A stretch of DNA of 32,000 nucleotides from Halomicrobium mukohataei DSM 12286 (GCF_000023965.1 NC_013202.1:450001-482000); one strand, 5' to 3'. Shown: positions 1 to 30,805, counted from the first letter of the stretch. Numbers and translations are program-made. Notes: generated by a model from the sequence alone, not told the origin.

Positions 1-434
1 CCAGGTCCGTCGCAGATCGTGTACATCGAGATACGACCAACCCCTATCGTCGGTCTCGTCTTCGAGGCGCTCGGCAGCTCGGCGCACCCAGCGGTAAACA
101 GTCGATCCAGCAACGCCTATCAGAGGCTCGTCGTCGTCCTGCTGGTACGCGAGTGTCTCCGCGATGGTGACGACTTCGGACGGGACTGGCGGCTCTCTGT
201 ACTTGTCACGCTTCGCGTAGTCCTCCCAGATTCGGATGTGATCTCCTGTCGGTCCCTCCACGAGGTCCTCGGGACACACTCCGGTGATCTCCGACCGTCG
301 GAGACCAACCCGACCAGCGAGCAAGAAGGCGAGCCGCTGGTGAGGTGTCTCAGCTTCGTCGATCAACCGAGCCAATTCGTCGTCCGATAGCCACACTCGC
401 TTTCCGTCGTCGTCGTCGTAGTCCTTGAGTCTCA
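1..434 (-). CDS. Tyrosine recombinase / phage-type integrase. The N-terminal ~144 aa are visible and the C-terminus runs off the window.
   Basis: Absent from the ORF track because it is open at the window edge. Reverse translation from the ATG at 434..432 gives MRLKDYDDDDGKRVWLSDDELARLIDEAETPHQRLAFLLAGRVGLRRSEITGV...TVYRWVRRAAERL...SYLDVHDLRRTW. The box I Arg context (GLRRSE) and box II H-x-x-R (HDLRRT) are present. The catalytic Tyr would lie beyond position 1. Confidence 0.85.
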
Positions 435-791
435 TGCACTCGTTTCGCACTTCTATTGCAAAACATCTAGTTTTTTCGGTCGTCCAGGTCGTCTGAAGCT
501 CCGATGAGCGGTGAAAATGCACCAGAATGGGGGATTCTCGGGCGTTCCGAAGACAGTATTTTGAAGCGGGTAGCCGCTGGAACGACGACCAAATGATACC
601 GCAGGCTCTCATCGGTACGTCGCTGGGTCTGGTTGGAGTCGCGTCGCTGGCGTTCCTCTACCTCTGGTTCGAAGCAAAAACGATCTGACGAAGGTCCTGA
701 ACGGCTCTATGTGCCGAGAGGCGGACACGCTATCGCGCCGGTTCGGTGACCAGCGATGGGTCGCACCGCACCAGGATCTCGTTGTCGACGC

Positions 792-1025
792 TCACGACTC
801 ACCACCGCCATCGTCGACGGCGTCGGCCATCGCCTCCTGCTCGTCGGTCCCCGGCGGCGGTCGGTAGGGCAGCTTCGAGGCGACCGCTCGCCCGAAGCCC
901 TCGACGCGCTCCATCCCGTAGCGAGTCGGGACCGCCATGCCGGCCACCAGCATCAGGACCGCCAGCGCCACCGTCTGCGCGTCGGGCATCGGGAGCGCGG
1001 GCAGTGTCGACTGCAACGGGATCAC
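792..1025 (-). CDS. Hypothetical small membrane protein (provirus)
   Basis: 77-aa ORF with a hydrophobic segment (TVALAVLMLVAGMAV) and an acidic C-terminus. It has an ATGA overlap with the upstream ORF at 1022-1025. Confidence 0.5.
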   Translation of the reverse strand: MIPLQSTLPALPMPDAQTVALAVLMLVAGMAVPTRYGMERVEGFGRAVASKLPYRPPPGTDEQEAMADAVDDGGGES

Positions 1026-1234
1026 GACCCTTCACCCCCGATCGCGTCGGCGTCCACGTCGTAGGTCGGCCCCTCGTCGTGAACGCCGAAGGCCCGCAGG
1101 AGCGCCCTGAGCCGCTTGCGGTTCGACCGCGACCGCTGGGCCGTCCGACGCAGTACCTCCAACTGTGCGAGCTCGATAGCGACCAGCACGGACAGCAGTG
1201 CCGCGACCGCCCCGAGACCGATCTGGACACCCAT
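1022..1234 (-). CDS. Hypothetical small membrane protein (provirus)
   Basis: 70-aa ORF with an N-terminal TM segment (GLGAVAALLSVLVAIELA) followed by a basic stretch. It is coupled to its neighbours on both sides. Confidence 0.5.
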   Translation of the reverse strand: MGVQIGLGAVAALLSVLVAIELAQLEVLRRTAQRSRSNRKRLRALLRAFGVHDEGPTYDVDADAIGGEGS

Positions 1235-1686
1235 TAGAGCAACCCTCCGATGGCGTCCCCGGCGTCCTCGACCGTGTCGGCCGCGCCGCCGGTCGCCCAG
1301 CTAAAGCCGTTACCGGCCGCGTCACCAGCACCCTCGACCGTGTCGGCAGCGCCGCCAAGCCACCAGTCCATCCCGTCGCTGACAACGTCGCCGGTGCCGT
1401 CGGCCACGTCCGTCGCACCGTCCCAGCTATCGCCAGCAGCGCCGCCCACGTCATCCGCGGCATCCTGTGCGCCGTCAGCCACGTCGCTGCCGACGGTGAC
1501 GGCAGTGTACACGTAGTACAGTAGCCCGAGACCGATAACCACCATGAGGATCTGCCCGCCGCGAGACTCCGCGACCTGACGGGCATCGGCGCTGCCCTGC
1601 TTGGCAACATCGGCCACCTCGTCGGCGTTATCGGCGAGCGCGCCGCCGGCCGCTGCTGCCGCTGGAGCCGGACTCACCGCGACCAC
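1234..1686 (-). CDS. Hypothetical membrane protein with a Gly/Ala/Asp-rich repeat tail (provirus)
   Basis: 150-aa ORF with a GTG start and a TM segment (ILMVVIGLGLLYYVY). The motif GGAADTVE(G/D)AGDA occurs twice. At the DNA level an imperfect 24-bp repeat lies at about 1267-1290 and 1332-1355. Confidence 0.55.
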   Translation of the reverse strand: MVAVSPAPAAAAAGGALADNADEVADVAKQGSADARQVAESRGGQILMVVIGLGLLYYVYTAVTVGSDVADGAQDAADDVGGAAGDSWDGATDVADGTGDVVSDGMDWWLGGAADTVEGAGDAAGNGFSWATGGAADTVEDAGDAIGGLL

Positions 1687-2246
1687 CCCCAGATCGCGAC
1701 CAGCAGCGCGATCGCCCCAACTGTACCGACTGCCTCGATCGGCACGCCGGCCGGACCGGTCGGTGATCTGTCGTCCGATCCTGGGGAATCCGACGTGTCG
1801 GTACCGGGCGTCCCGTCGCCAGGCCAGTCGGTCGAGCCGTCCGGAGCGGTGGTCCCTCGATCCGCCTGACTGGAGTTCGGAGTGCCGTCGGTCCTGCTAT
1901 CCGGTGTGGTCACCACCGCGTCAGCAGATCCGTCGCCGTCGGTGTCCTCGACGCCCTCAGACGGGCCAACAGTCGTGTCGCTGCTGCCCTCGTTGCGGCC
2001 GGAGATGATCGTGTGATCCGAGCCGTTCGTTCCTGAGCCCGCATCTGGGTCCGGGGGCGAATAACCGTCGTCGCGCGAGTCGTCAGTCTGCCGGTCGATG
2101 AGGTCCTGTGTCTGCTCCGATCCGCGACTCGACGACGAACTGCTGTCGTCGTCGTTGTCGCCAGCCGTGTAGCTGCCGTCTCCCGCCGAGTCGATCGTAT
2201 CGTGACGATCGAGATACCGCGTCATCGCGGTGTCGTGGTCGCTCAT
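1674..2246 (-). CDS. Acidic Ser/Thr/Asp/Gly-rich protein with a C-terminal membrane anchor (provirus)
   Basis: 190-aa ORF. It is low-complexity and acidic throughout, ending in the hydrophobic tail VGTVGAIALLVAIWGWSR. Confidence 0.6.
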   Translation of the reverse strand: MSDHDTAMTRYLDRHDTIDSAGDGSYTAGDNDDDSSSSSSRGSEQTQDLIDRQTDDSRDDGYSPPDPDAGSGTNGSDHTIISGRNEGSSDTTVGPSEGVEDTDGDGSADAVVTTPDSRTDGTPNSSQADRGTTAPDGSTDWPGDGTPGTDTSDSPGSDDRSPTGPAGVPIEAVGTVGAIALLVAIWGWSR

Positions 2247-2336
2247 CGCTCGATACCTCTGGTCTGAGTGTTGTTGCTGTCGATCATGATTGTGTCATAG
2301 ATGCGCTGCCGGTAGTCGACCGGACCAGGAAGTCGG

Positions 2337-2876
2337 TCACGCGAGTGGCCCTCCGAGGTTCCCGCCACGGCCGACGCTGAGCCCTTTGAGCTTCACCGGA
2401 TCGAAATACAGTGTCGCCTCTCGATCCTGTGTCCCGATGGTCTGAGTCCCGTCCACGTCGTCGTCGTCCGCGAGCTGATACCAGACGTAGTCAACCCCAG
2501 ACCGGTCGCTGGACGCGATCACCACGAACGTCTCGTAGAGTACGTTTAGCAGCCACAGATCCGCTTCTCCGTTGTCGTCGACCCGCGCCGCCGTCGGGAA
2601 CACTCCTGCAGACTGCACCCAGACGGCGTCGCTGAGGGGCTGTCCGTCCGTATCTTTGAGCGTCACGTGTACCCGTCGGAAGTTACCCGTCGGGATCACG
2701 ATACCACGACCGGACCCGACTCTGTGAGCCGAAGCTCCGAGCCCGAACAGTCGGCGGTCGTGCCCGCCGTCCGTATCCTCGATACCGTTAGCGGTCCCCG
2801 AGAGGGCGAGCGCTCGGCGGTCGTGCCCGCCGTCCGTGAGCGTTGCCGACTGAGCCGCTCGTGTGTAGCTCGCCAT
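2337..2876 (-). CDS. Hypothetical protein with a beta-sandwich-like pattern (carboxypeptidase-regulatory-like); possible vertex or host-recognition component
   Basis: 179-aa ORF. The N-terminus has a duplicated TDGGHDRR motif, encoded by a perfect 24-bp direct repeat at 2751-2774 and 2814-2837. The segment VHVTLKDTDGQPLSDAVWVQ...DDNGEADLWLL...FVVIASS resembles CarboxypepD_reg-type sandwiches. This rests on pattern recognition only. Confidence 0.6.
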   Translation of the reverse strand: MASYTRAAQSATLTDGGHDRRALALSGTANGIEDTDGGHDRRLFGLGASAHRVGSGRGIVIPTGNFRRVHVTLKDTDGQPLSDAVWVQSAGVFPTAARVDDNGEADLWLLNVLYETFVVIASSDRSGVDYVWYQLADDDDVDGTQTIGTQDREATLYFDPVKLKGLSVGRGGNLGGPLA

Positions 2877-2882: not shown

Positions 2883-3767
2883 TCAGTCCATGCGGAGCGC
2901 CACGCTCGCGGCGTCCCTGTTCAGGATTGTGTACAGGTCGTTCCCGTCGGCGTCTTGGATCGTGTCCCGGTGAGCGGCGTCTCCGCCGCTCCGCTCTTGG
3001 AGGACCATCTCATACCGCCCGATCACGGCGTCCGCGCCAGAGGCGTTGCGGTAGGAGCTCGATCGAGCCACGCCGTCCGTGTACGGGTAGTTGTTGTAGT
3101 TCGCGTCTGGGTTCGCGACTCCCTGTGCGTAGTGGTGCGGGCTGGATCCCGACTGTGCCATGCGGCAATCGAGAGCCACCTGTTTGATGGGGTTGTAGTC
3201 TATGGAGTCCGCCACGTGCCCGGCGACTCCGAAGATCATGTTCGCCTCGTGAGTGGCGGCGTCGTCGTAGTCCCACAGTTGCGTCACCTCCTCGAAGAAG
3301 ATCATGCCGTCGCCGTCGTTGCCGTCCGCCTCCTCTCTCTGGAAGTAGAGAGCGAACCCGGAGTCTACGTATTCCAACCAGTACGTCACGGCGTCTCCCT
3401 CTTGGATCCCGCCGCCGTCCGACTGGTGAGCCGTGATCTTACCCGTGGTCCCGTCGTTCCGGCCGATCTCCTTCAAACGATTGCCGGGATCGTTCGGGTA
3501 GCGATCGTTCCACGAGCTCGAACCGGTGTCCCAGTCCACGCCGTACTCGGGCGTGAGCCCGCGGTTATCTTGGTCCGTGTTCGGTCTGAACCGGATGTAC
3601 TCGTTGAACGGAGTGGCGATCACGAACCAGTCGTTCGTGGGAACTGAGGCGTCTCCGCCGCCGCTCGAAGTGTCCACCACGCTGTATCCGGTCATGCTCG
3701 TGACCTTATCTCTGAGTGCCGCCAGTGCTTTGCCCCACGTCGTCGCGATTGGTCCATCGAAAGTCAT
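2883..3767 (-). CDS. Hypothetical structural-type protein (provirus)
   Basis: 294-aa acidic ORF rich in Asp/Asn/Gly/Tyr/Trp. It is tightly packed, 2 nt after the upstream stop and 6 nt before the downstream start. I recognise no motif. Confidence 0.65.
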   Translation of the reverse strand: MTFDGPIATTWGKALAALRDKVTSMTGYSVVDTSSGGGDASVPTNDWFVIATPFNEYIRFRPNTDQDNRGLTPEYGVDWDTGSSSWNDRYPNDPGNRLKEIGRNDGTTGKITAHQSDGGGIQEGDAVTYWLEYVDSGFALYFQREEADGNDGDGMIFFEEVTQLWDYDDAATHEANMIFGVAGHVADSIDYNPIKQVALDCRMAQSGSSPHHYAQGVANPDANYNNYPYTDGVARSSSYRNASGADAVIGRYEMVLQERSGGDAAHRDTIQDADGNDLYTILNRDAASVALRMD

Positions 3768-3769
3768 TG

Positions 3770-4225
3770 TTACTTCAGTGCCAACACTTTCAGAGTGGTG
3801 TCGGCGTCACTCTCGGTCATCTTTCGGTACCACAGCTTTGAGGCGTTGAGTCCACCGGGTGGGCTGAGCGAAAACGGCGCTTCCGAGGCCGTCAGCGGGA
3901 TCTCGCGGTTGGTCCCGGTCTGCTGGAACGAGACCAGCACCGGCCCATCGAAGCCCCACACGGTGACCGTATCGGCGGGGAACCCCCAGTCGAGACTCTG
4001 CTGGCCGACGCCGTCGACGGCGACCGGCACCTCAGTCACGAAATACGTCGGCTCGTCGCTGGTGCTGGTCTCGCCGAGATACTGGTCGCCACGCTGGTCG
4101 AGCAACAGCGCGAGCAGGAGCCGGTCCGTGTCGCTCTCCAGCAGATCCTCGTGCCAGGAGTCGGCACCGAGACTGTATTCGGACAGCACCCGCTCGATGA
4201 CGCTGTCAGGGCCGACAGTGCTCAT
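3770..4225 (-). CDS. Hypothetical protein (provirus)
   Basis: This is the acidic C-terminal 151 aa of track ORF 3770..4531, starting at the internal ATG at 4225 (MSTVGPDSVIERVL...). The upstream 102 aa of that ORF are Arg/Cys/Thr-rich and overlap ORF 4284..4547 in another frame. Confidence 0.65.
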   Translation of the reverse strand: MSTVGPDSVIERVLSEYSLGADSWHEDLLESDTDRLLLALLLDQRGDQYLGETSTSDEPTYFVTEVPVAVDGVGQQSLDWGFPADTVTVWGFDGPVLVSFQQTGTNREIPLTASEAPFSLSPPGGLNASKLWYRKMTESDADTTLKVLALK

Positions 4226-4283
4226 TGGCTCATCACCACGTCGTTGCTGTTGTGCCGCCGTTCTGTGGCGGGTTCGTCGTGAA

Positions 4284-4547
4284 TCATATCGTACCGTCCT
4301 CCATCGCCGTGTACAGCAGCAGTACGAGCATGCACAGGGTGCTGGCCAGCAGCAGGTCGTCTCGGTTGATCGGACGCCCCCGGAGGATCTCGTCCAGCGC
4401 CGAGTCGTCCGGTCCGTACTGTTGGCCGTTTCCCTGACCAGTGCTCGTCGTCGCTGCTGCGGTGCGTGGCTCTCCGGGTTGATTGCGACCGGTGCCAGAT
4501 GCCTCTCGTCCGGTTGCATCTCGTGTAACAAGTCCGCCGGACGGCAC
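4284..4547 (-). CDS. Hypothetical small protein with a C-terminal TM segment (provirus)
   Basis: 87-aa ORF with a GTG start 4 nt after the upstream stop. It has a hydrophobic C-terminus (LLLASTLCMLVLLLY). Confidence 0.45.
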   Translation of the reverse strand: MPSGGLVTRDATGREASGTGRNQPGEPRTAAATTSTGQGNGQQYGPDDSALDEILRGRPINRDDLLLASTLCMLVLLLYTAMEDGTI

Positions 4548-4551
4548 GGCT

Positions 4552-5277
4552 CTACCTCCGTGCCGCGTCAGTCGCCACTGCCTGCTTCAGCCCGTCGATA
4601 GGACCTTCGGCTCCGCGGACGGGCAGGTCAGTGAGCGCGTTCGTTGCGACCACCTCAGTCCCCGATCCGGTCTCCGTAGCGAACGCGACCGTGTACGGGG
4701 CCGTGATGGTGAGTGCGAGCGTGAAGTCCGCCGGAACGAACGGATGGAGCGGGGACTGATCGGCGTCGACGGTGATGGGCTCTTTGCCCTGGTCCCGCCG
4801 GTGGATCATGCCCATATCCGCCGAAAAGAGAACGTCCGGCGTCCCGTTGGGTGCGACCTTTTGCAACTCCACGAGCGCCTGCGCTCCGCTCGTGTAGTAG
4901 GCCGTGAGCGTGTTGTCCGTCCCGTCGTCCGTGTAGTTGAACGAGTCTCCGGCGTAGTCGATCGAGTCGGGCTGAACCCGCTTGTCGCCCTCGTACAGGA
5001 CGAGCGAGTTGGTGACTACGCTCGAATCGATCAGTTCGTGAGACACGGAGAACGTCTCGCCGTCTCCGGCGTTTCCATCGGTCGTGAACGTCTCGCGAGC
5101 CACCAGCGACAGGTCGAACGGACGGGTTGCGTCGACGGACAGCGCCCGCTTGGGCTGGTACTCCGCGACGGTCGTGGGCTGTCCGGGCGATCCCGTCGAG
5201 AAGCTGAAGTCACCGTTCGTGATGTTGTCGCGGCTGGTGTTGGCCTCCCGAAGACGCTGCATGATCTGCTCGTTCAT
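4552..5277 (-). CDS. Putative large major capsid protein (assigned by size and position)
   Basis: 241-aa ORF lying directly after the 160-aa ORF and downstream of the ATPase. It has a beta-rich, Thr/Asp/Val-rich composition. The function is inferred only from gene order and size relative to sphaerolipoviruses. Confidence 0.45.
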   Translation of the reverse strand: MNEQIMQRLREANTSRDNITNGDFSFSTGSPGQPTTVAEYQPKRALSVDATRPFDLSLVARETFTTDGNAGDGETFSVSHELIDSSVVTNSLVLYEGDKRVQPDSIDYAGDSFNYTDDGTDNTLTAYYTSGAQALVELQKVAPNGTPDVLFSADMGMIHRRDQGKEPITVDADQSPLHPFVPADFTLALTITAPYTVAFATETGSGTEVVATNALTDLPVRGAEGPIDGLKQAVATDAARR

Positions 5278-5281
5278 GCTG

Positions 5282-5764
5282 TCAGTCCTCCGCTCGGACG
5301 GTCACGGCCTTGCGGTCGATCTCCAGACGCGAGTTGTCCCAGTCGATCTGGGTTGAAGAGTTGATAGCAACCTGCACCTCCTCGAAGTCGAGCACGATCA
5401 GGCCGTCACTCTTCAGTTCGGTCCGGGTCTGTTCTCGGTACTCCTCGTTCTGCTGTTCCTTGAGCGAGAGCGTCCGGTACTGTCGGATGTTGCTCAGTCG
5501 TTCGCTCACGATCATCGGCTGATCCCGGCTCGGGGTGTCCCACCGCAGGATCACCTCGGTGTCGCGGGGAAGGTCGTTCCCGTCGGCGTCCTTCAGCTCG
5601 GCGTAGATCGGGACGCCAGAACCGCCGTACACGTGATTGTCGATCTCGATGACGAGCCCGTCGACGGGCGACCACGTGAGGATCGTGCTGTCGGTGTCTG
5701 GGATGTTCGTCTCTTCCGTCGCGTCGACCTTCGCGCTGCCGAGATTGGTCAGGCTCTCCGACAT
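5282..5764 (-). CDS. Putative small major capsid protein (assigned by size and position)
   Basis: 160-aa ORF (MSESLTNLGSAKVDATEE...) with a 1-nt TGATG overlap with the upstream ORF. It lies 4 nt before the 241-aa ORF. The function is inferred from gene order and size only. Confidence 0.45.
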   Translation of the reverse strand: MSESLTNLGSAKVDATEETNIPDTDSTILTWSPVDGLVIEIDNHVYGGSGVPIYAELKDADGNDLPRDTEVILRWDTPSRDQPMIVSERLSNIRQYRTLSLKEQQNEEYREQTRTELKSDGLIVLDFEEVQVAINSSTQIDWDNSRLEIDRKAVTVRAED

Positions 5765-6027
5765 CAGTTACCCTCCGAGACCCGAGCGCGGAGTTCCTCC
5801 AGAACGTTGATGCCGCCGCCGATGGCGACCTTCCGGCCAGCGCCGCCGTAGAGCGCGCCGCCAGCGGCGACTGTCGCCCCGTAGGCTTCGTTCGGGAGGT
5901 CCCGTCCCATCTTGTCCTCGACTGCGTACTGCACGAGTTCCGGTGCCATGTACCCGCCGCCGATGAGGGCCACGTCCATCACGTAGTCCTCCGAGGCGAG
6001 CGTGTCGATTGCATTACTAAATTCCAT
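5764..6027 (-). CDS. Hypothetical Gly/Ala-rich small protein (provirus)
   Basis: I prefer the ATG at 6027 (MEFSNAIDTLASEDY...). The track uses a TTG at 6060. The sequence contains Gly-rich stretches (IGGGYMAP, AAGGALYGGAG, AIGGGIN). Confidence 0.55.
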   Translation of the reverse strand: MEFSNAIDTLASEDYVMDVALIGGGYMAPELVQYAVEDKMGRDLPNEAYGATVAAGGALYGGAGRKVAIGGGINVLEELRARVSEGN

Positions 6028-6110
6028 GCAATCGACCAGTACAGGCCCCAGGAGTATCAAGAACCGACGAATTGAGAACGTCCGAGAAAGCCTGAAACAG
6101 CCTCAGACAG

Positions 6111-6254
6111 TCAGAAACTGGCCATGTCCATGAGCCGGCGCACCGCCTCCGCGTTGCCCGGCTTGCTGCCCGGCTGGTTCTCCGCCATTGCCTCCTGCAT
6201 CGCATCGAATCGGTCGCTGTCGTCGCCGTACAGGGTGATTTGGGTCCGTGTCAT
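6111..6254 (-). CDS. Small ribbon-helix-helix (CopG-like) protein, 47 aa
   Basis: Below the track size cutoff. Translation is MTRTQITLYGDDSDRFDAMQEAMAENQPGSKPGNAEAVRRLMDMASF. It has a strand-helix-helix pattern and an ATGA overlap with the ATPase stop at 6251-6254. Confidence 0.5.
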   Translation of the reverse strand: MTRTQITLYGDDSDRFDAMQEAMAENQPGSKPGNAEAVRRLMDMASF

Positions 6255-7051
6255 GAGTAGCTGGGCGGGTTCAGGTCGTTGCCTTCGCTACCGTGGTGCG
6301 TTGATGCCATCGTGACGTTCTGAGTGTTGACGCGCTTCTTCTCGCCGTCGTCGTCGCTATAGATCCACTCACTACCGATCGTGTTGCCCTCGTCGTCCTC
6401 GTGCTTGCGGACCGACGTGGGCCGCTCTCGATCCGGCGGCAGTAACTCGTCTGGGACCGTGCTGGCCGGCGGACTGGTGCCCTTGTTGTGCAGGTTCTCG
6501 GGATACTCGATATAGGGCTTGACAGCGTCGAGGTCGCTGCCATCGAGCGCCCCGACCATCCACGCCTGGCACTGGGTCAGGATCGTTTTGTCGATCTCTG
6601 CGGGCCGCTGTGTGATCCAGATAGTCGACGTGCCAGCACCGCGTCCGGTGGTCGCCAGTTCCTTGATGGCCTGGGGGAGCTTCTGCTTCTGCGGCGCGAT
6701 GAAGTGCGCCTCGTCGGCCGCGATGAGCTGGTCCCGATCGAGGCGACGGAGTGCCTTCGAGATGGTCGTACACACGTCCCGCCAGCGGTCGGTGCCGAGG
6801 TGCTGTTTGTGCCGTTCCAGCACGATATAGGGGTTCTGACGGAGGAACGTCTGCCACTGCTGGACGCCCCACTGCTCCTCGACCCGCCCGACGATCAGGT
6901 GCCGGGCCAGCCCCTCCTTGACGAGTCCCCGGTACTCGGCGCAGTAGTCCAGCACGACCACCGCCTCGTACGCCATCGCGTTGCTCTCCATCCACGCCTG
7001 AGCGTGGTAGCTCTTGCCCCAGCCGCTCTGGGCGATGAACGCCAGATTCAC
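6251..7051 (-). CDS. FtsK/HerA-superfamily P-loop ATPase, putative genome-packaging ATPase
   Basis: Walker A is AQSGWGKS and Walker B is LIAADEAH. A downstream motif RGAGTSTIWITQRP is typical of this superfamily. The start is ambiguous: the track uses TTG at 7162, whereas I prefer GTG at 7051 (VNLAFIAQSGWGKS), which overlaps the stop of the zinc-ribbon ORF as GTGA. Confidence 0.8.
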   Translation of the reverse strand: MNLAFIAQSGWGKSYHAQAWMESNAMAYEAVVVLDYCAEYRGLVKEGLARHLIVGRVEEQWGVQQWQTFLRQNPYIVLERHKQHLGTDRWRDVCTTISKALRRLDRDQLIAADEAHFIAPQKQKLPQAIKELATTGRGAGTSTIWITQRPAEIDKTILTQCQAWMVGALDGSDLDAVKPYIEYPENLHNKGTSPPASTVPDELLPPDRERPTSVRKHEDDEGNTIGSEWIYSDDDGEKKRVNTQNVTMASTHHGSEGNDLNPPSYS

Positions 7052-7173
7052 CGCCGAGTCCTCCCGAGGTTCGTGAAGTCGTCGTGTCCACAGTTCGGGC
7101 AACTGCTGGGTGATAGACAGTCGGGCGGAGCCACCACCACATGACAGTTCTGGCAGGACCAAGCTTGTGTCAC
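7048..7173 (-). CDS. Small zinc-ribbon protein, 41 aa (CxxC ... CPxCG)
   Basis: Below the track cutoff as a stand-alone ORF. The GTG start at 7173 overlaps the upstream stop (GTGA). Translation is (M)TQAWSCQNCHVVVAPPDCLSPSSCPNCGHDDFTNLGRTRR. Its stop overlaps the GTG at 7051 of the ATPase. Confidence 0.5.
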   Translation of the reverse strand: MTQAWSCQNCHVVVAPPDCLSPSSCPNCGHDDFTNLGRTRR

Positions 7174-7448
7174 TGCTCGCCCTCCTCGCCGTCGCCCTCC
7201 TCGACGGGTTCGCCTTCGAGCCGGAGTGTGTCGCCGCCGGTCGTCCTGATACGTCGCTGCTCGCCGTCCCCGATCGCGTCGAGGTCCAGGTCGGTCAGGT
7301 AGGCGGAGTCGGGACGGTCGACGTTCATCTCGGTCTGGCTCGATCGGTCGCGTAGCATCTCGGCAATGAGCCACGCGATCCACACCAGGGCCAGCAGCCA
7401 GAAGCCCGCTTCGGCCCACTTCTGCATGTCGTAGGCGGATACCGTCAT
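7170..7448 (-). CDS. Hypothetical membrane protein (provirus)
   Basis: 92-aa ORF with a TM segment (GFWLLALVWIAWLIAEML) and an acidic tail. It has an ATGA overlap with the upstream gene. Confidence 0.6.
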   Translation of the reverse strand: MTVSAYDMQKWAEAGFWLLALVWIAWLIAEMLRDRSSQTEMNVDRPDSAYLTDLDLDAIGDGEQRRIRTTGGDTLRLEGEPVEEGDGEEGEQ

Positions 7449-8020
7449 GCGACCACCTCGGTCAGCGACTCGATCGCGTCGACGGTCTCGTCGGTCGGCT
7501 CTCCGAGCAGGTCCTCCATCGCTCGCTGGTCGTCTAACTCAACGACGGCCTGCTCGAACCGAGCGAGCGAGACGCCCCAGTGTCCCTGGACGTGCTTGTC
7601 GGCCAGCAGCCGGTCGTCGTACCCGTCGAGTCCGTCCTGCTGGTGGCGCACTGTGTCGGCCCACCGAGCGACCTGCCCCTCCCACTCGCCCCGGTCCATC
7701 TCCGCGTAGGTGAGGAGAGTCTGCGGGTCGTCGGTCTCGATGTCGTCGGGCAGGCAGTTGGACAGCCACACTTCGATCATCGACGGGCCGCCGGGGACCT
7801 TCGCCGCGATCACGTCGCAGAGTTCATCGACGCGGCTCTCGATGTCGAGCGGGTCGGTCTCCGGTTCCATGCCGGCCGTCTCCATCACGTCGATGTACGA
7901 CTCTCTCGGCCGGTTCTCCATCTCTGCCAGTACCCGAGCGGCTGCCCGGATCTTCTCGGAGTCGTGAGGGTTGTCTAGCTGCTTCTTCATCTCGCGCATC
8001 TCGTTGAGCTTCTGCATCAT
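7445..8020 (-). CDS. Hypothetical acidic protein (provirus)
   Basis: 191-aa ORF (MMQKLNEMREMKKQLDNPHD...) with ATGA overlaps at both ends. I recognise no motif. Confidence 0.65.
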   Translation of the reverse strand: MMQKLNEMREMKKQLDNPHDSEKIRAAARVLAEMENRPRESYIDVMETAGMEPETDPLDIESRVDELCDVIAAKVPGGPSMIEVWLSNCLPDDIETDDPQTLLTYAEMDRGEWEGQVARWADTVRHQQDGLDGYDDRLLADKHVQGHWGVSLARFEQAVVELDDQRAMEDLLGEPTDETVDAIESLTEVVA

Positions 8021-8622
8021 AGGCTGAGGTCCATGTCTTCCGCGATGTCACTGATAGCGTCCTGTGCCATGTCGGTCTCCGTGAGGATCACGACGAGCGC
8101 CAGCCCGGCCGTTCCGACGGCCACCTTCGTGCCGGGCGAGGTGTCGGCCCCAATACCGGCATCTTGTAGCCACTCATCCACCGCGTCGTCCATCTCGACC
8201 GGCGGTGATCGGGCCAGATCCTCGATGGCCTCGGCGTCCTTGCCGGTCTCGCCGTCGCTCGCCTCGGCGATCTCCCCGAGGAGGAGCGCCAGCATGGTGA
8301 CGTACTGCTCGCCCCATGATTCGCCGTCTGGTAGCGCCGGCTGTGTGGCCGTCTCGTCGGTTTCTTCGCTGTCGGGGTCGTCGGTGCCTGTCGTCTCGTC
8401 GCCGCTGTCGTCGCCGCCCTCGTCGTCGGGAGCGGCCTGCTCCTCAATCGCCTCCGTGTCGAGTTCGAGACCGTCGAGGTCGGCCTGCTCGTCCGGCTCG
8501 ATGTCCGGCAGGTCCTCCTCGGTCTCCTCTCCCTGCTCGTCGGCCGGCTCCTCCTCGGTCTCCTCTCCCTGCTCGTCGGCCGGCTCCTCCTCGACCGGCT
8601 CCTCGGTCTCGCTCACAGTCAT
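8017..8622 (-). CDS. Highly acidic protein with a C-terminal-region TM segment (provirus)
   Basis: Internal ATG at 8622 of track ORF 8017..9225 (MTVSETEEPVEEEPADEQGEETEE...). The TM segment is VAVGTAGLALVVIL. It has an ATGA overlap with 8619..9200 and contains a 36-bp tandem duplication. Confidence 0.65.
   Translation of the reverse strand: MTVSETEEPVEEEPADEQGEETEEEPADEQGEETEEDLPDIEPDEQADLDGLELDTEAIEEQAAPDDEGGDDSGDETTGTDDPDSEETDETATQPALPDGESWGEQYVTMLALLLGEIAEASDGETGKDAEAIEDLARSPPVEMDDAVDEWLQDAGIGADTSPGTKVAVGTAGLALVVILTETDMAQDAISDIAEDMDLSL
8515..8586. repeat. Perfect 36-bp tandem duplication inside a CDS
   Basis: ctcctcggtctcctctccctgctcgtcggccggctc occurs at 8515-8550 and again at 8551-8586, with a 7-nt start of a third copy. 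It encodes a duplicated 12-aa acidic block (protein segment EEEPADEQGEETEEEPADEQGEETEE). Confidence 0.9.
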
Positions 8623-9200
8623 ACCCACCCCTCGCCCTCCTCGACCGGGTCGGCGTCCGATACCTCGCTCTCGACTTCCATCGGCTCCTGGTCGTCGTCG
8701 CTGTCGGTGCCGGTCGCCAGCAGGATAGCCAGCCCGAGGGCCAGCGTAGCACCGAGGATTACCAGCCCTGACGGGCCAGATTGGCCGGTATCTGGCTGGC
8801 CTCCCGATTGCTGATTCTGGCCGTCTGACTGGTTCTCCTCGGTGTTCTCGCTGCCCTCCTCGCTGGTCTGTTGCTCGATCTGTTGCTCGTACTCCTCGGT
8901 CTGGTCCATTTCTGGCTGGTCTTTCTCGCTGGTTTCCTCGGTCTCTGGTTGCTCTCTGGCCGGATCTTGCTGGCCTTCGTCCTCGTCTCCCTCGGTAGCA
9001 GCCGCTCCACCCGTTCCGGGCGGGTCGTCGTCGCTGCTGTCCTCGTTGGTCTCGTCGTCCTGCTGGCCCTCGACGGCGGCCCGGATCTTGGGCCAGTCGT
9101 GCTTTCCGTCGGACCCCATCGAGTTGCTGTGAGACCGGAGACCGGCCAGACTGTCGCCGCTGTAGTCGCACCCGTCGATCGGGCAAGTGTAGTTGCTCAT
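8619..9200 (-). CDS. Membrane protein with an N-terminal Cys/His zinc-finger-like motif and an acidic Gln/Glu-rich linker (provirus)
   Basis: 193-aa ORF. The motif YTCPIDGCDYSGDSLAGLRSH...H is C2H2-like with atypical His spacing. The TM segment is LVILGATLALGLAILLA. It has ATGA overlaps at both ends. Confidence 0.65.
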   Translation of the reverse strand: MSNYTCPIDGCDYSGDSLAGLRSHSNSMGSDGKHDWPKIRAAVEGQQDDETNEDSSDDDPPGTGGAAATEGDEDEGQQDPAREQPETEETSEKDQPEMDQTEEYEQQIEQQTSEEGSENTEENQSDGQNQQSGGQPDTGQSGPSGLVILGATLALGLAILLATGTDSDDDQEPMEVESEVSDADPVEEGEGWV

Positions 9201-10657
9201 GTGTAGTTGAGAATGCCGCCCTCATCGTCTAACGCGGCCTTCTTCGCCTCTGCGGCCGCTACCTGTACCGTCTCGTTTGTCGATTTGAAACCGATCTCGT
9301 CGGGGTCGATCAGGTCGACGTACTCCATCGCGACGGCCTCCGCTTCGGGAGCGTCGGGGAGTCCGCTCGCTACGTCGATCGTCCCCGGCGGGCCGTGGAG
9401 CCTCACCACCCAGTCGTTGCGGGCCGCTCGGTCGATAGCGACCTTGTACGGCCCCGCTGTCCACGTCGTCCCCTCCCGAGTCCAGGCCGACGGGAGTGGC
9501 CCGACCGCGTCGTCCTCGTTCTCCCCGGTGAGCGTCACCTGCCGATCCTCTCCGGGGGTCTCCTCGGGCGACACGCCTGCCGAGAGTTGGGCCTGGCCTT
9601 CGCTGGCGAACGTGTCGGCCGTCTCGATCACCTCGGCCGGCTCGTCGTCCCGATCGTCGCCGCGCAGGTCGTCGGGCCGCCGGTCAGCCGGATCGGGCCG
9701 GGTCGGCTCTCGCTCTGCGAGCTCGGAGTCGGCGAGTTCGTCCCGATCGCCGCCGGGTTCCTGGGCGAAGTGATCCAGCGTCTTGACGATCGGGACCGAG
9801 CCGGGCATCGAGTCGAGCGAGTCGAGCAGGGTATGGAGCCGGTTCGGGTGTAGCTCCGGCTGGCCGTTGGCCTCCCTGATCCGGTTGATGGCCCGCCACG
9901 ACTGCCGGGCGTCGATCACTGCCTGTCGGGCGTCCGCTATCGCCGTTTCGAGGTCGCCCACGGCGTTCTTGTAGCCGCCCCAGGAACGCCGGAGCGCACC
10001 GGCCACCTCGGGCCGTAGCTCCATCTCCGGGTACTCGTCGCCGCCGACCGTGACGAGTTCCGTCTGCTCGCCGTCGTCGGCGTGATCCTCGTCGAGGAAC
10101 TGCTGCACTTCCTCCTCGTCGTAGCCGCAGGTCTCGGTGAGGAACTCGCAGGCTTCGGGATCACCCGCCTCGCAGTGGCCCCGTGCGTGGTCGCATCGCT
10201 CGCCCTTTGCCGTCTGGGCAGCGTCAGCGGCCTTCTCGTCGGCACTCTCCTGCTCGTCGGTGCGCTTGCCGCTCTCGCGGCTGGCGTCGGCCATCACCTC
10301 GCGGTGTTCGTCGACAGTCAGAGTGCCGTCGTAGTAGCTCACCCAGTCCTCGACGCCCTCGGACCGAGCGATCCCCTTGACCGCCTTCGCGTGGGGTACC
10401 GAGGCGCGTGCCTTCCCGAAGTCGATCCGGTCGCGCTCGCCGTCACTGAGCGGCACCTGACCGGGACCGTCGCTCCCTTCGCCCCGACTGTCCTCGGCTT
10501 CGAGTCGTTCGGCGTCGAGCACATGGTCGGGCGTGTCGGCGTCGGAGTAGGCGACGGTCTTCAGCCGACGGTCGTCGTCGGTACACAGATACTCCTCGTG
10601 TCGGTCTCTCGCGGCGTCTGCCGCGTCTTTACTCCCGTACTCGATACGTGTCGTCAC
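9197..10657 (-). CDS. Large acidic hypothetical protein, first gene of the long operon (provirus)
   Basis: 486-aa ORF with a GTG start. It has a Cys/His cluster (CDHARGHCEAGDPEACEFLTETC) and long acidic, apparently disordered stretches. I recognise no catalytic motif. Confidence 0.65.
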   Translation of the reverse strand: MTTRIEYGSKDAADAARDRHEEYLCTDDDRRLKTVAYSDADTPDHVLDAERLEAEDSRGEGSDGPGQVPLSDGERDRIDFGKARASVPHAKAVKGIARSEGVEDWVSYYDGTLTVDEHREVMADASRESGKRTDEQESADEKAADAAQTAKGERCDHARGHCEAGDPEACEFLTETCGYDEEEVQQFLDEDHADDGEQTELVTVGGDEYPEMELRPEVAGALRRSWGGYKNAVGDLETAIADARQAVIDARQSWRAINRIREANGQPELHPNRLHTLLDSLDSMPGSVPIVKTLDHFAQEPGGDRDELADSELAEREPTRPDPADRRPDDLRGDDRDDEPAEVIETADTFASEGQAQLSAGVSPEETPGEDRQVTLTGENEDDAVGPLPSAWTREGTTWTAGPYKVAIDRAARNDWVVRLHGPPGTIDVASGLPDAPEAEAVAMEYVDLIDPDEIGFKSTNETVQVAAAEAKKAALDDEGGILNYT

Positions 10658-10758: not shown

Positions 10759-11385
10759 CTACCGGTCAGTAGCCGTGTCTACAGCACAGTCGTTTCCGCC
10801 GTCCGTAGCCGCAACTAAGGTCGTCTGTTCGGTCACATCGGGCACTTCCCCCGCTACTGGTGCTCCGCCACCTTTTCGATCGACGGAGAGCGCGATATCG
10901 TACCCGGACCAGTTCGGGGTGCGGAAGTAGTAGGTAGCGACCCGTTCCCAGCCGTCCCAGCCGTCGAGTCCGTCGGAGTTGTAGCCGAACGTCAGGACGT
11001 GGCCGCCGGGCGCGGTAACGTTCGCAATCGCACCTCTGGCCTCCCACTTCCGGCCGACGTGGTTCCCGTCGTAGTGTCGTTCAGCCATCTCAGCGGTGTA
11101 CGGCGGGTCGTAGACGACGGTGTCGAAGTGGTCGCGATCGAAGTGGTCGTCAATCTCACGAACGTCGAAGTGGGTGTCAACATCCCGATCCTCGTCGATG
11201 TCGTTCCGGGTGATCGGGCCGTCGTGGTCGAGGCTCGTCTTTCCGGCGCAGGCGTTCAAAACCTCCCCAGCGAGCCACTTTTCGACGATCGCCCGAATCT
11301 GTGGAACCTCGAATGTCCACGGCGAGAGGTGGACCGGCTCGCCGTCCTCGGTCTTCCCGCCGATCTTGATTCGCTCGACCGTCAC
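10759..11385 (-). CDS. SAM-dependent methyltransferase with a DPPY motif (DNA N6A/N4C-type or RsmD-like)
   Basis: Motif I-like VLNACAGKTS is followed about 50 aa later by TVVYDPPYT (motif IV). I prefer the GTG at 11385 (VTVERIKIGG) as the start because it overlaps the upstream small ORF stop as GTGA. The track uses TTG at 11436. Confidence 0.75.
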   Translation of the reverse strand: MTVERIKIGGKTEDGEPVHLSPWTFEVPQIRAIVEKWLAGEVLNACAGKTSLDHDGPITRNDIDEDRDVDTHFDVREIDDHFDRDHFDTVVYDPPYTAEMAERHYDGNHVGRKWEARGAIANVTAPGGHVLTFGYNSDGLDGWDGWERVATYYFRTPNWSGYDIALSVDRKGGGAPVAGEVPDVTEQTTLVAATDGGNDCAVDTATDR

Positions 11386-11537
11386 GCGGACCACCTCCGA
11401 CCGCAGGTTTCGCAGACCCAGCAATCGCCATCCCAACCGTGGAGAGTGTCACTGACGCAACGGTGGCAGTAGCGGAGCTGCGGCGACTCATCGGACGGGT
11501 GTTGTGGCGCTTGCCCGATCCGGTCAGTACTGCTCAT
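11382..11537 (-). CDS. Small zinc-ribbon protein, 51 aa
   Basis: Below the track cutoff. Translation is MSSTDRIGQAPQHPSDESPQLRYCHRCVSDTLHGWDGDCWVCETCGRRWSA. It has an ATGA overlap with the ASCH gene stop and a GTGA overlap with the methyltransferase start. Confidence 0.5.
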   Translation of the reverse strand: MSSTDRIGQAPQHPSDESPQLRYCHRCVSDTLHGWDGDCWVCETCGRRWSA

Positions 11538-11884
11538 GTACTGACCACCTCGAAAACGATGACTTCGACGTTTGTCGCGGGGAGAATCGTTTTTTGATAG
11601 TGGCTGTTGACACCATCGACCACCTCGTGGACAGTACTTGAACCGTAGTTTGCACCGAACAGGTCGAGTAGATCAGGGACTTCGACTGCCAGCACACTCG
11701 CTGTTCGCTTGATTTTGAGGATGGCGAACTCTAACCCGTCCTGTGTCGTCGCAGGCACATAGCTTCCAACAGCAGGTAACTCCATGTCGTATCGAACGGT
11801 CGCTGTCTTCTCCCCACCCAATATCTCACCGGCGTACGCCTCATCGAACTCCAGTTGTTCGGTACTCTCACTCACGGGAACCAC
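11534..11884 (-). CDS. ASCH (PUA-like) domain protein
   Basis: 116-aa ORF. The N-terminal signature FDEAYAGEILGGEKTATVRYD resembles the ASCH G-x-K-x-x-E/T-x-R pattern. It is visibly more A/T-rich than its surroundings, with many A/T-ending codons. Confidence 0.55.
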   Translation of the reverse strand: MVPVSESTEQLEFDEAYAGEILGGEKTATVRYDMELPAVGSYVPATTQDGLEFAILKIKRTASVLAVEVPDLLDLFGANYGSSTVHEVVDGVNSHYQKTILPATNVEVIVFEVVST

Positions 11885-11999
11885 CCCAGTCGCGGGCGTC
11901 TCGTCGGGTGAGGTGCGTCTGGCAGAGGTCAGTGATCGCGCCGACCCGGCGGCGAGTGTCGTCGTCCTCGATCTCGTCGAGCAGGTCGTCGCGGTTCAT
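11868..11999 (-). CDS. Small acidic hypothetical protein, 43 aa
   Basis: Below the track cutoff. Translation is MNRDDLLDEIEDDDTRRRVGAITDLCQTHLTRRDARDWGGSRE. It has an ATGA overlap with the stop of 11996..12397, and nearly all codons end in G or C. Confidence 0.4.
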   Translation of the reverse strand: MNRDDLLDEIEDDDTRRRVGAITDLCQTHLTRRDARDWGGSRE

Positions 12000-12397
12000 G
12001 ACTCCCACCCCATGAGTTGGTACGACGTGTCTCCGTAGACGTTGTTCTGGCGTCGGAGGTACCCGCGCTTGTGGAGCTTCCGGAGCACCTGCGTCCGGAT
12101 TTCGCTCTTTGGGATGTTCAGGACCGACGCCAGCAGCGTCAGAGCGACACTGCCCCGGACGTAGCCCTCGGGACTGGCGTGCTCACACAGCCGCTTGTAG
12201 GCGGTGCCCAGTCGGTCGTCCTGCGGTGGGGCGAGCGGCGTAGTGTTGTCGTGCTCGGTGTCGCAGGTCTGGGCCATGAGGGTCCGAAGTGCCTCGCTCC
12301 GGCTGCCATACTGGGACTCCTCAACCCAGCTATCGAAGGCGTCCACGAGATCGTCGTCGGCGCTGAAGCTGACTGACGCCCCGCCAGCCGTCTGCAT
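11996..12397 (-). CDS. Transcriptional regulator with an N-terminal ribbon-helix-helix and a C-terminal winged-helix-like domain
   Basis: I prefer the ATG at 12397 (MQTAGGASVSFSADDDLVDAFDSWVEESQYGSRSEALRTLMAQ = RHH pattern). The C-terminal segment ALTLLASVLNIPKSEIRTQVLRKLHKRGYLRRQ is wHTH-like. Confidence 0.65.
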   Translation of the reverse strand: MQTAGGASVSFSADDDLVDAFDSWVEESQYGSRSEALRTLMAQTCDTEHDNTTPLAPPQDDRLGTAYKRLCEHASPEGYVRGSVALTLLASVLNIPKSEIRTQVLRKLHKRGYLRRQNNVYGDTSYQLMGWES

Positions 12398-12412
12398 CAC
12401 CACGACCGACCA

Positions 12413-12444
12413 CCTCGATTAATAGATATCGAGGGGTGATTAAT
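12413..12444 (-). promoter_or_regulatory. Candidate promoter/operator: an inverted repeat flanking a TATA-like box, plus a GATTAAT direct repeat
   Basis: CCTCGAT (12413-12419) and ATCGAGG (12428-12434) form a 7-bp inverted repeat. On the minus strand, TATTAAT (12418-12424) lies about 24 nt upstream of the ATG at 12397. GATTAAT occurs at 12417-12423 and 12438-12444, 21 bp apart. Confidence 0.45.
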
Positions 12445-12536
12445 CGCAACACGGCGGAGTGGTGAGCAATGCTTAATGATCCCCCATGTAGGGGTCGCTG
12501 GGAGAGTCGCGCCGGTGTGCGTGCCCGTGCGCCGCG

Positions 12537-12680
12537 TCATCGGCGGACCTCCCAGAAGCAGTCCGTACACGTTTCCTCGCCGTCGACGTAGGTACACTCG
12601 CCGACGTTGCCGCAGGTACAGCGTCCCTCGAACCAGATTCGGCGGTCAGAGGGTGCTGGTGTCTGCTCGTGGGTCGACAT
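12537..12680 (-). CDS. Small zinc-ribbon protein, 47 aa
   Basis: Below the track cutoff. Translation is MSTHEQTPAPSDRRIWFEGRCTCGNVGECTYVDGEETCTDCFWEVRR. The ATG at 12680 directly follows the TAG stop (12683..12681) of the SWIM/HTH gene. Confidence 0.5.
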   Translation of the reverse strand: MSTHEQTPAPSDRRIWFEGRCTCGNVGECTYVDGEETCTDCFWEVRR

Positions 12681-13235
12681 CTACAGGTCACCCCCGAGTT
12701 TTTCGCGGGCAGAAGCCAGCAGGTTCCCGATCGTGCCGGGCGATCGGTCGGTTCGGCGGGCGAAGGGGCGAACGCCCGCGTCGGCTACGTCACAGTGCAG
12801 GAACGCGTCAAGTTCGGCAGGAGAAAGGTCGTCAAGTGGTCGTGATGGTGGGTCGAAGCGGAGCCATGCTGGTGGCTCTGGGTAGTCTCTCCCGGTGTGA
12901 AGGTGCGAGACGACGATCCGACCGCGTACCCACTGCCACCAGAGAGAGGCGACGTGAGCGCACCAGCCGTCGTTGAAGCGGTGTCCTCGACAGTCGCAGT
13001 CGGCCAGTAGCGTCTGGCCTTGGAGTGCCCACGTCACTCTGTGAGAGCCTTCACCGCCGCTGAGACGAACCATGCGCTCGGCGTCGTTGATGGGGCCGCC
13101 CTGGTCCACCTCGGTCTGTGCGCGTTCCCACGGCGTCGAGCTGGTCAGTTGCTCCGGCATGGAGAAGCTCGACGGCCCGCCGATCTCGTCGGGCAGGTCG
13201 TCGCTGGGTTGCCAGCCGGGGCTGGCACGACTCAC
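12681..13235 (-). CDS. SWIM zinc-finger protein with a C-terminal HTH (sigma-70 region 4 / LuxR-like)
   Basis: CDCRGHRFNDGWCAHV matches the SWIM pattern CxCx(n)CxH. The C-terminal segment LSPAELDAFLHCDVADAGVRPFARRTDRSPGTIGNLLASAREKL is HTH-like. The start is GTG at 13235, with an alternative ATG at 13160. Confidence 0.65.
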   Translation of the reverse strand: MSRASPGWQPSDDLPDEIGGPSSFSMPEQLTSSTPWERAQTEVDQGGPINDAERMVRLSGGEGSHRVTWALQGQTLLADCDCRGHRFNDGWCAHVASLWWQWVRGRIVVSHLHTGRDYPEPPAWLRFDPPSRPLDDLSPAELDAFLHCDVADAGVRPFARRTDRSPGTIGNLLASAREKLGGDL

Positions 13236-13411: not shown

Positions 13412-13483
13412 TGGACTCGCCGGGATTTGAACCCGGGGCCTCTTCCTTGCGAAGGAAGCGATCTGCCACTGATCTACGAGCCC
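13412..13483 (-). tRNA. tRNA-Ala (anticodon CGC)
   Basis: The reverse complement is GGGCTCGTAGATCAGTGGCAGATCGCTTCCTTCGCAAGGAAGAGGCCCCGGGTTCAAATCCCGGCGAGTCCA. A 7-bp acceptor stem carries the G3:U70 alanine identity pair. The anticodon loop is TTCGCAA, the T-arm is CCGGG/TTCAAAT/CCCGG, the discriminator is A, and CCA is not encoded. Confidence 0.93.
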
Positions 13484-13723: not shown

Positions 13724-14035
13724 TCAGTCCTCGAGGACGATCTCGATGGAGACGTCGTTCGGGACCTGGATCCGCATGAGCTGGCGCAGTGCTCGCTCGT
13801 CGGCGTCGATGTCGATGAGCCGCTTGTGGACGCGCATCTCCCAGTGTTCCCACGTCGCGGTCCCTTCGCCGTCGGGGGACTTGCGGGTGGGGACTTCCAG
13901 CGTCTTGGTCGGTAGCGGGACGGGGCCCGAGAGCTCGACGCCGGTCTTGTTCGCGATCTCGCGAACGTCACCGCAGATGTCGTCGAGGTCCTCGGGACTG
14001 GTCCCTGCCAGCCGGACGCGTGCCTGTTGGGACAT
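13724..14035 (-). CDS. rps10: 30S ribosomal protein S10 (uS10)
   Basis: 103-aa ORF: [44 protein letters not shown]...[30 protein letters not shown]. This is the classic uS10 sequence and it lies 3 nt after tuf. Confidence 0.95.
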
Positions 14036-14038
14036 GCG

Positions 14039-15301: not shown

Positions 15302-15325
15302 TGTTGTATCTCACGCGCAGAGGCG

Positions 15326-15332
15326 CTATATC
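15326..15332 (-). promoter_or_regulatory. Candidate TATA box for tuf-rps10
   Basis: The minus strand reads GATATAG about 28 nt upstream of the tuf ATG (15301). This implies a leaderless or very short-leader mRNA. Confidence 0.35.
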
Positions 15333-15549
15333 GGAGTCTTTACGCGGTAGTTCATAAAACGATTTCGAAAGCGTCCGTAGGGCGTCCCGACGCCGTCCTG
15401 CGATTTGGCACGCGGTGACACGGGCCGAACCGCGTTCGCGGCCCGCTCACACCACCAGAATCGGTGCCGATCGGGGGACAGAGGGGTCCCTGAGGTGCCC
15501 AGAGAGCGCGCGCGACACGACCAGCCGGGCCGCGAGAACGGGAGATCGG

Positions 15550-24187: not shown

Positions 24188-24237
24188 TCGATACCGGTGT
24201 CGACAGCCTTTTTTCCCCGGCGCAATGATTGCTGTGC

Positions 24238-24594: not shown

Positions 24595-24620
24595 TCAAAG
24601 AGTCAGCAAGCAGCAAGCAT

Positions 24621-24841: not shown

Positions 24842-24850
24842 GGTGGTAGC

Positions 24851-30804: not shown

Positions 30805-30805
30805 G

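Follow-up and report, generated by a model that had tools for sequence, protein, structure and literature searches.

The haloarchaeal viruses of the SNJ1 group belong to the family Simuloviridae, with the genus Yingchengvirus (formerly Betasphaerolipovirus). The fold of the two major capsid proteins (MCPs) of such viruses is established by crystal and cryo-electron microscopy structures, and it is customary to regard the MCP pair together with the packaging ATPase as the 'self' of this virus lineage, inherited jointly. Simuloviruses are extrachromosomal circular episomes of 16-19 kb that infect Natrialbales, and their tailless icosahedral virions of ~70 nm contain an internal lipid membrane (PMC12642351). 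The three of them, SNJ1, NVIV1 and HJIV1, share 17-21 open reading frames (ORFs) and the lysis-lysogeny regulator ORF4, of the MazE superfamily; RepA, for rolling-circle replication, is present in SNJ1 and HJIV1 and absent from NVIV1, itself a recognised virus (PMC12642351). A 2025 preprint assigns these viruses to the realm Singelaviria. Here we examined a stretch of 32,000 nt from Halomicrobium mukohataei DSM 12286 (GCF_000023965.1, NC_013202.1:450001-482000; the whole stretch is called the window), and conclude with high confidence that an integrated SNJ1-like provirus has its morphogenetic core at positions 4552..7162 of the minus strand. All proviral features described below lie on the minus strand.

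SNJ1-related proviruses of H. mukohataei are already known, with publications going back to 2013 at the latest. Porter et al. (2013) report that SNJ1 homologues adjoin a tRNA-Ala gene in this species, in an element named ViPREHmuk1, and that Hmuk_0476 resembles the spike protein VP6 (PMC3622292). ViPREHmuk1 is described as 39,379 nt long and bounded by tRNA-Ala repeats, a composite in which SNJ1-like genes stand alongside pleolipovirus-like and plasmid-like ones (PMC3622292). Reviews name two SNJ1-related proviruses, HaloMukP1 and HaloMukP2, both in H. mukohataei (PMC4284463, PMC4958249), and the literature of 2013-2016 cites earlier work by Jalasvuori, Pawlowski and co-workers (2009/2010). 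ViPREHmuk1 and the window agree in the tRNA-Ala border, the SNJ1 homologues and a VP6-like gene, which in the window is a 179-aa ORF. The element studied here is almost certainly one of the published HaloMukP1 and HaloMukP2, lying within ViPREHmuk1. Biologically the locus adds little, since both the provirus and the two-MCP fold were already known; what the present analysis contributes, modestly, is fold-level confirmation for the MCPs of this provirus, a corrected ATPase start, the finding of integrated SNJ1-like elements beside tRNA-Ala or tRNA-Pro genes across many haloarchaeal genera, and a clear mosaic pattern between two sister proviruses.

The core had been singled out in a first-pass annotation of the sequence, which proposed from architecture and size that a Walker A/B ATPase, small ORFs, and beta-rich ORFs of 160 and 241 aa form the capsid and packaging core of a tailless, membrane-containing virus. 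These ORFs are indeed present on the minus strand, and the 160-aa (5282..5764) and 241-aa (4552..5277) frames are separated by the 4 nt reported (5278..5281). Both products are homologous to MCPs of the SNJ1 group. By BLASTP, the 160-aa protein shares 38% identity with SNJ1 PB7 (E 9e-29) and 34% with the small MCP of NVIV1 (E 2e-27), and the 241-aa protein shares 33% with SNJ1 PB2 (E 2e-45) and 38% with the NVIV1 large MCP (E 3e-47). Pfam has no family for either protein. A database search returned 27 homologues of the large MCP, none of them named or with a Pfam domain; the closest, at 91% identity, is from Halomicrobium sp. IBSBa.

An AlphaFold2 model of the large MCP, made on the alignment of those homologues, reached a mean predicted local distance difference test score (pLDDT) of 92.1 and a predicted template modelling score (pTM) of 0.86. 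Compared with the PDB by Foldseek, it gave exactly seven matches at E <= 0.001, all of them large MCPs (P23-77 VP17 and the VP4 proteins of SH1, HCIV-1 and HHIV-2), extending over the full length with E values of 8.5e-12 to 4e-9 and template modelling (TM) scores of 0.62-0.72; the match after these came at E 0.04 with a TM score of 0.16. The small MCP model, with 8 sequences for its alignment, was weaker (pLDDT 68.6). All 19 of its Foldseek matches at E <= 0.001 were small MCPs (VP7 of SH1, HCIV-1 and HHIV-2, and P23-77 VP16), and over both proteins TM scores for the fold matches ranged from 0.5 to 0.72. Profile searches of the PDB pointed weakly to the same proteins: the large-MCP profile matched SH1 ORF 25 (E 0.035), and the small-MCP profile matched P23-77 VP16 (E 0.026) and then the small-MCP chains of HHIV-2, SH1 and HCIV-1. 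Structure prediction and profile searching, both suggested as checks in the first-pass annotation, therefore returned the corresponding single-jelly-roll MCPs, and the models bore out the beta-rich character of the two ORFs. Taken together, homology and predicted folds support the identification of the 160-aa product as the small MCP, a single jelly-roll, and of the 241-aa product as the large MCP, with a jelly-roll base and a tower.

Upstream of the MCP genes lies a gene for a genome-packaging ATPase of the FtsK/HerA superfamily (6251..7051, with a maximal ORF reaching TTG 7162), whose translation contains the motifs AQSGWGKS and LIAADEAH, as had been noted. In tblastn searches of GenBank phage records it was 41-43% identical to the annotated packaging ATPases of SNJ1, NVIV1 and HJIV1 (E 5e-56 to 8e-52), and these were its only matches. 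Its PHROG match was phrog_2666 (E 1e-55), the phrog of sphaerolipovirus-type packaging ATPases; a Pfam scan gave only a sub-threshold AAA_22 match, and in the PDB it aligned with ATPases of the HerA family, over the stretch around Walker B and the sensor. When the E limit was relaxed to 10, the SNJ1 group was followed in tblastn by the packaging ATPases of PM2 (P9), NO16-like Vibrio phages and Thermus phage phiKo. PM2, the NO16-like Vibrio phages and phiKo are tailless membrane-containing viruses. No match to VirB4/TraG conjugation ATPases or pleolipovirus NTPases was found by tblastn at E <= 10, in PHROG or in the PDB; the affinity that the first-pass annotation had named as fatal to its proposal did not appear.

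The start of this ATPase is most likely GTG 7051, giving a protein of 266 aa. The equivalent start is found in 13 of 13 relatives (SNJ1, NVIV1, HJIV1 and ten related proviruses), whose ATPases share the pattern (M/V)NLAF..GWGK and have their first residue only two to four positions ahead of the Walker-A strand, and the exact 266-aa product exists in a public protein collection. Because the relatives begin at this position and the 266-aa product is on record, the 37-aa extension from TTG 7162 to 7051 is probably untranslated. It is also unconserved and has a G+C content at third codon positions (GC3) of 0.59, a value typical of non-coding sequence, compared with 0.82-0.88 in neighbouring genes, and we rejected it as the N-terminus of the protein. 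The end of the core had been placed earlier at 7173, which is the GTG of a 41-aa ORF in a different frame and not the start of the ATPase.

This 41-aa ORF (7048..7173; VTQAWSCQNCHVVVAPPDCLSPSSCPNCGHDDFTNLGRTRR) carries a CxxC-x15-CxxC zinc-ribbon pattern. It occupies the 119-nt gap between a 92-aa transmembrane ORF and the corrected ATPase start, overlapping both neighbours via GTGA, and its GC3 is only 0.68. No counterpart was found in the 13 relatives examined. It is possible that this ORF is a real gene.

Resemblance to SNJ1 extends well beyond the core. A tblastn search of the window with the complete SNJ1 protein set (E <= 0.01) found homologues for 11 SNJ1 ORFs: PB1, VP1, gp7, gp9, VP2, VP4, the ATPase, VP6, PB7, PB2 and gp32. 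With SNJ1, NVIV1 and HJIV1 the window shares the packaging ATPase (41-43% identity), the small MCP (34-38%) and the large MCP (33-39%), as well as homologues of VP6, VP2, VP4, gp32, PB1 and VP1. Their order is the same in both: VP2, and further on the ATPase, a small ORF, VP6, the small MCP, the large MCP and a transmembrane ORF, followed later by gp32, PB1 and VP1. The lengths in SNJ1 and in the window are, respectively, 275 and 266 aa for the packaging ATPase, 55 and 47 aa for the small ORF (gp24), 97 and 98 aa for VP6, 158 and 160 aa for the small MCP (PB7), and 239 and 241 aa for the large MCP (PB2).

The succession of ATPase, small MCP and large MCP seen at the outset is thus both homologous to its SNJ1, NVIV1 and HJIV1 counterparts and identical in order. 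The first-pass annotation had also described a run of transmembrane proteins after the MCPs: one single-transmembrane ORF does directly follow the large MCP and four more come later, but three soluble proteins stand between them. With this correction and that of the ATPase start, the original observation is confirmed, and its interpretation as the capsid and packaging core of a tailless membrane virus is supported. A reading of sequence alone can therefore spot the signature of ATPase, small MCP and large MCP from architecture.

Could the core belong to another kind of element? The fold matches to VP4 and VP7 of SH1, HCIV-1 and HHIV-2, together with a 179-aa ORF that is 30% identical to the HCIV-1 spike VP6, might suggest a provirus of the alphasphaerolipovirus type (SH1, HHIV-2, PH1, HCIV-1) instead of the SNJ1 type. 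We consider this very improbable: neither MCP shows significant BLASTP similarity to HCIV-1 VP4 and VP7, the ATPase is 24% identical to that of HCIV-1 (BLASTP, E 3e-11) as against 41-43% to those of the SNJ1 group, and both the size (~14 kb in view) and an ATPase gene co-directional with the MCP genes follow SNJ1. The relationship is specifically to the SNJ1 group and not to SH1 or HHIV-2. The first-pass annotation had itself raised the case of an ATPase that clusters with conjugation ATPases or pleolipovirus NTPases. On such a reading, the ATPase would belong to a conjugative or plasmid system or be a pleolipovirus NTPase, and the two beta-rich ORFs would be unrelated cargo. Although the published island does hold pleolipovirus-like and plasmid-like genes elsewhere (PMC3622292), the best family of the ATPase is a sphaerolipovirus-type packaging phrog, the flanking ORFs are demonstrably MCPs, and no conjugative or pleolipovirus match was obtained at E up to 10. 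Homology to the SNJ1-group ATPases, the MCP folds and the relaxed tblastn search effectively refute this reading, to which we give next to no credence.

A weightier alternative is that the genes are of SNJ1 type and belong to a defective remnant, or to a fixed part of the 39-kb ViPREHmuk1, that forms no virions and has no replication of its own. In its favour, tblastn with the SNJ1 proteins identified neither a replication protein nor an ORF4-type regulator in the window, no attachment (att) repeat lies inside the window, and a sister provirus in Halomicrobium sp. ZPS1 (L017, described below) has a short integrase of 195 aa followed by an IS1595 transposase. The published island is a 39,379-nt composite bounded by tRNA-Ala repeats (PMC3622292). 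Yet the conserved structural ORFs are all intact and full-length compared with SNJ1 and NVIV1, their codon GC3 is normal (0.82-0.88), the N-terminus of the integrase is open to the window edge, and the recognised virus NVIV1 also does without RepA (PMC12642351). On balance we regard a defective or fixed element as unlikely.

Several observations nevertheless weigh against the identification as an SNJ1-like provirus. Within the tblastn limit of E <= 0.01, SNJ1 RepA has no match in the window, nor has the SNJ1 ORF4-type switch regulator (gp4, and also the MazE-type gp5); the SNJ1 toxin VapC gave no match either. Neither a repeat search nor a blastn-short comparison of the window with its tRNA-Ala region revealed a second att copy inside it, and the left border lies outside the view. 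The small MCP model is only moderately reliable (pLDDT 69, falling below 50 in residues 93-123), and the assignment to HaloMukP1 or HaloMukP2 and to the Hmuk locus tags is inferred. The published identities of HaloMukP1 and HaloMukP2 to the HCIV-1 ATPase are ~37% and ~29%, next to the 24% obtained here by BLASTP.

We identified relatives of this SNJ1-like provirus by a genome scan with a trimmed large-MCP alignment. Nine related loci (labelled L003-L011) were found, in Halosimplex, Halobaculum, Halolamina, Halobellus, Haloarchaeobius (two), Halapricum and Natronomonas (two), and IMG/VR searched with the trimmed alignment yielded three more relatives, the HJIV1 and SNJ1 genomes among them. The order from a VP2-like gene to ATPase, small MCP and large MCP is kept in all nine loci. 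Eight of the nine have a tRNA-Pro (GGG or CGG) or tRNA-Ala (CGC or GGC) gene on the side of the gene for a SWIM zinc-finger protein, and five have a homologous integrase. A clear 20-nt repeat of the tRNA end was present among the relatives only in L005, ~18.4 kb away; L017 has none. Integration at tRNA-Ala or tRNA-Pro looks like the rule for this clade; the ICTV calls simuloviruses episomal.

A second small MCP, 96% identical to that of the window, is recorded for H. mukohataei as ACV47834.1; the small-MCP cluster mates bearing the name Halomicrobium mukohataei include this entry and UniProt C7P412_HALMD. In Halomicrobium sp. ZPS1 the locus of the second small MCP (L017) is a sister provirus situated at tRNA-Pro(GGG). 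Comparison of the two proviruses revealed a mosaic. The capsid cassette, comprising the VP6-like gene, the small and large MCPs, a transmembrane ORF and the gp32-like gene, is 94.7% identical in DNA (window 6033..3690, L017 9732..12050), a block of membrane-protein genes is 89% identical (window 2404..812, L017 13448..14999), and the 5' end of the VP2-like gene is 95.5% identical. At the protein level, identity is 47% for the packaging ATPase, 40% for the PB1-like protein, 52% for the VP1-like protein and 37% for the integrase, and the L017 ATPase is no nearer to that of the window than are the ATPases of other genera (37-48% identical). A third variant (L018) is present in a different H. mukohataei assembly, at a site unlike these two.

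This pattern of identity indicates that proviruses divergent in other respects have recently exchanged the capsid cassette. We lean slightly towards the view that the cassette was recently swapped between two SNJ1-like proviruses of one Halomicrobium lineage, one at tRNA-Ala and the other at tRNA-Pro. Were this true and of wider validity, the packaging ATPase would not be inherited as one unit with the two MCPs, and co-resident proviruses would act as reservoirs for capsid swapping; the tRNA-integrating relatives, which occur in at least 10 genera, would moreover be a taxon of their own, separate from the episomal Simuloviridae. Such mosaic exchange is the one mildly new point.

The remaining genes of the structural module were assigned by comparison with SNJ1 and by hydropathy scanning, which found seven small single-transmembrane ORFs in the module. 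Between the ATPase and the MCP genes lie a 47-aa ORF (6111..6254), the positional equivalent of SNJ1 gp24, with homologues at the same position in L003, L005, L009, L010 and L017 (35-68% identity), and a homologue of the minor structural protein VP6 (5764..6060, 98 aa; 29% identity to SNJ1 VP6 by BLASTP, E 7e-9). The latter is conserved in most relatives and is probably 87 aa long, from ATG 6027, the version in the sister proviruses being called as 87 aa. Directly after the large MCP, a single-transmembrane ORF (4284..4547) is the positional equivalent of SNJ1 gp28, is 94% identical in L017 and encodes a putative internal-membrane protein. It is followed by a soluble 151-aa homologue of SNJ1 gp32 (3770..4225; 43-44% identity to gp32 and 54% to NVIV1 ORF10) and by a 294-aa homologue of the SNJ1 structural protein PB1 (2883..3767; 31% identity over 98% of its length; phrog_20439, E 3e-151), a putative vertex or spike component. 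The soluble 179-aa ORF (2337..2876; phrog_33192) is a homologue of SNJ1 VP1 with 30-32% identity, and its C-terminal part matches the HCIV-1 spike protein VP6 (30% identity, E 4e-17). In its N-terminal part, an in-frame repeat spaced by 63 nt encodes DGGHDRR (2739..2837).

Four further single-transmembrane ORFs of 190, 150, 70 and 77 aa (1674..2246, 1234..1686, 1022..1234 and 792..1025) encode putative virion membrane proteins and are 80-99% identical in L017; the 77-aa ORF is also conserved in L004, L005, L007, L009, L011 and L013. On the other side of the ATPase, the 92-aa transmembrane ORF (7170..7448) is preceded by a 191-aa ORF (7445..8020), an acidic homologue of SNJ1 VP4 (8017..8622), a 193-aa transmembrane protein (8619..9200) and a 486-aa homologue of SNJ1 VP2 (9197..10657). 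The VP2 and VP4 homologues were recovered by tblastn in both directions against SNJ1. The VP4-like ORF contains a 36-nt tandem in-frame repeat encoding EEPADEQGEETE (8503..8574).

G+C content across the window is ~62-72%, and plausible genes occupy its minus strand from ~13235 down to 1. The region 10759..13235 is assigned as the early or regulatory module. It encodes a DNA methyltransferase (10759..11436; phrog_11619, E 2e-75) and an ASCH protein (11534..11884), neither of which has a homologue in SNJ1, and a protein with ribbon-helix-helix (RHH) and winged-helix domains (11996..12403). The 184-aa protein encoded at 12681..13235 has a SWIM zinc finger and a helix-turn-helix (HTH), and joins counterparts of SNJ1 gp9 and gp7 in one chain. 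Pfam and PHROG scans identified the proteins of this module. Identity of the 184-aa protein to its homologues in L003, L006, L008 and L017 is 65-67%; in the three genome loci among these (L003, L006 and L008) its conservation exceeds that of the capsid proteins, and its gene is the closest to the tRNA in most related loci. This SWIM-HTH protein is a candidate regulator or recombination-directionality factor.

At the right border, ARAGORN identified tRNA-Ala(CGC), the integration target (13412..13483). Beyond it (13724..32000) lie ordinary host genes, for ribosomal protein S10, EF-1alpha, two histidine kinases with seven-transmembrane sensors, EF-2, and a BioY transporter accompanied by an ABC ATPase; the flanking host proteins cluster with those of H. 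mukohataei and H. katesii. At its left end (1..435) the window encodes the first 145 aa of a tyrosine integrase, with LRRSE and HDLRRTW motifs; the gene leaves the window there with its reading frame open up to the edge. Integrases at related proviruses are 31-41% identical to it. From tRNA-Ala(CGC) to the integrase gene, the visible provirus measures at least 13.4 kb. Since no second att copy occurs inside the window, neither the left border nor an intact integrase can be seen, and a left att, if any, would lie beyond the window.

By analogy with P23-77, SH1, HHIV-2 and HCIV-1, morphogenesis would proceed as in SNJ1. The small and large MCPs would assemble, as upright beta-barrels, into pseudo-hexameric capsomers that enclose an internal lipid membrane, in which the small transmembrane proteins would sit, and the PB1-like and VP1-like proteins would form the vertex spikes. 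The ATPase would pump double-stranded DNA into a preformed procapsid, and the integrase would insert the genome at, and excise it from, the tRNA gene.

Among known systems, SH1, HHIV-2, PH1 and HCIV-1 (Sphaerolipoviridae), and the Thermus phage P23-77 (Matsushitaviridae), share with the window the two-MCP architecture and the folds. HCIV-1 and the window also have in common the FtsK/HerA packaging ATPase (24% identity) and a VP6-like spike domain, whereas the window MCPs have no BLAST-detectable similarity to those of HCIV-1. The Sphaerolipoviridae have linear genomes of ~30 kb with terminal proteins and inverted terminal repeats, and P23-77 has bacterial hosts. Gene order around the ATPase also differs: in the 31-kb HCIV-1 genome the ATPase gene is divergently oriented, unlike in SNJ1 and the window. 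With MCPs lacking significant homology to HCIV-1 VP4 and VP7 and with an SNJ1-like layout, the element falls outside Sphaerolipoviridae sensu stricto.

The SNJ1 group is closer. With Simuloviridae the element has in common homologous MCPs, a homologous packaging ATPase and a collinear structural module, and it departs from them in five respects: it is not episomal, RepA and ORF4 homologues were not found in it, it shares 11 ORFs compared with 17-21, and its host is of another order. Simuloviruses are extrachromosomal and their hosts are Natrinema or Haloterrigena, whereas the window element is chromosomal, beside tRNA-Ala with a tyrosine integrase, and its host is Halomicrobium. Where simuloviruses have the ORF4/MazE regulator, it has the RHH/winged-HTH and SWIM-HTH proteins, and unlike them it encodes an ASCH protein, the SWIM-HTH fusion of gp9 and gp7, and a DNA methyltransferase. 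Adjacent single-jelly-roll MCP genes 4 nt apart, together with an FtsK/HerA packaging ATPase, are as expected of the order Halopanivirales. The best description of the element is therefore an integrated provirus of SNJ1-like type within the order Halopanivirales, next to the family Simuloviridae and outside the genus Yingchengvirus in its present definition.

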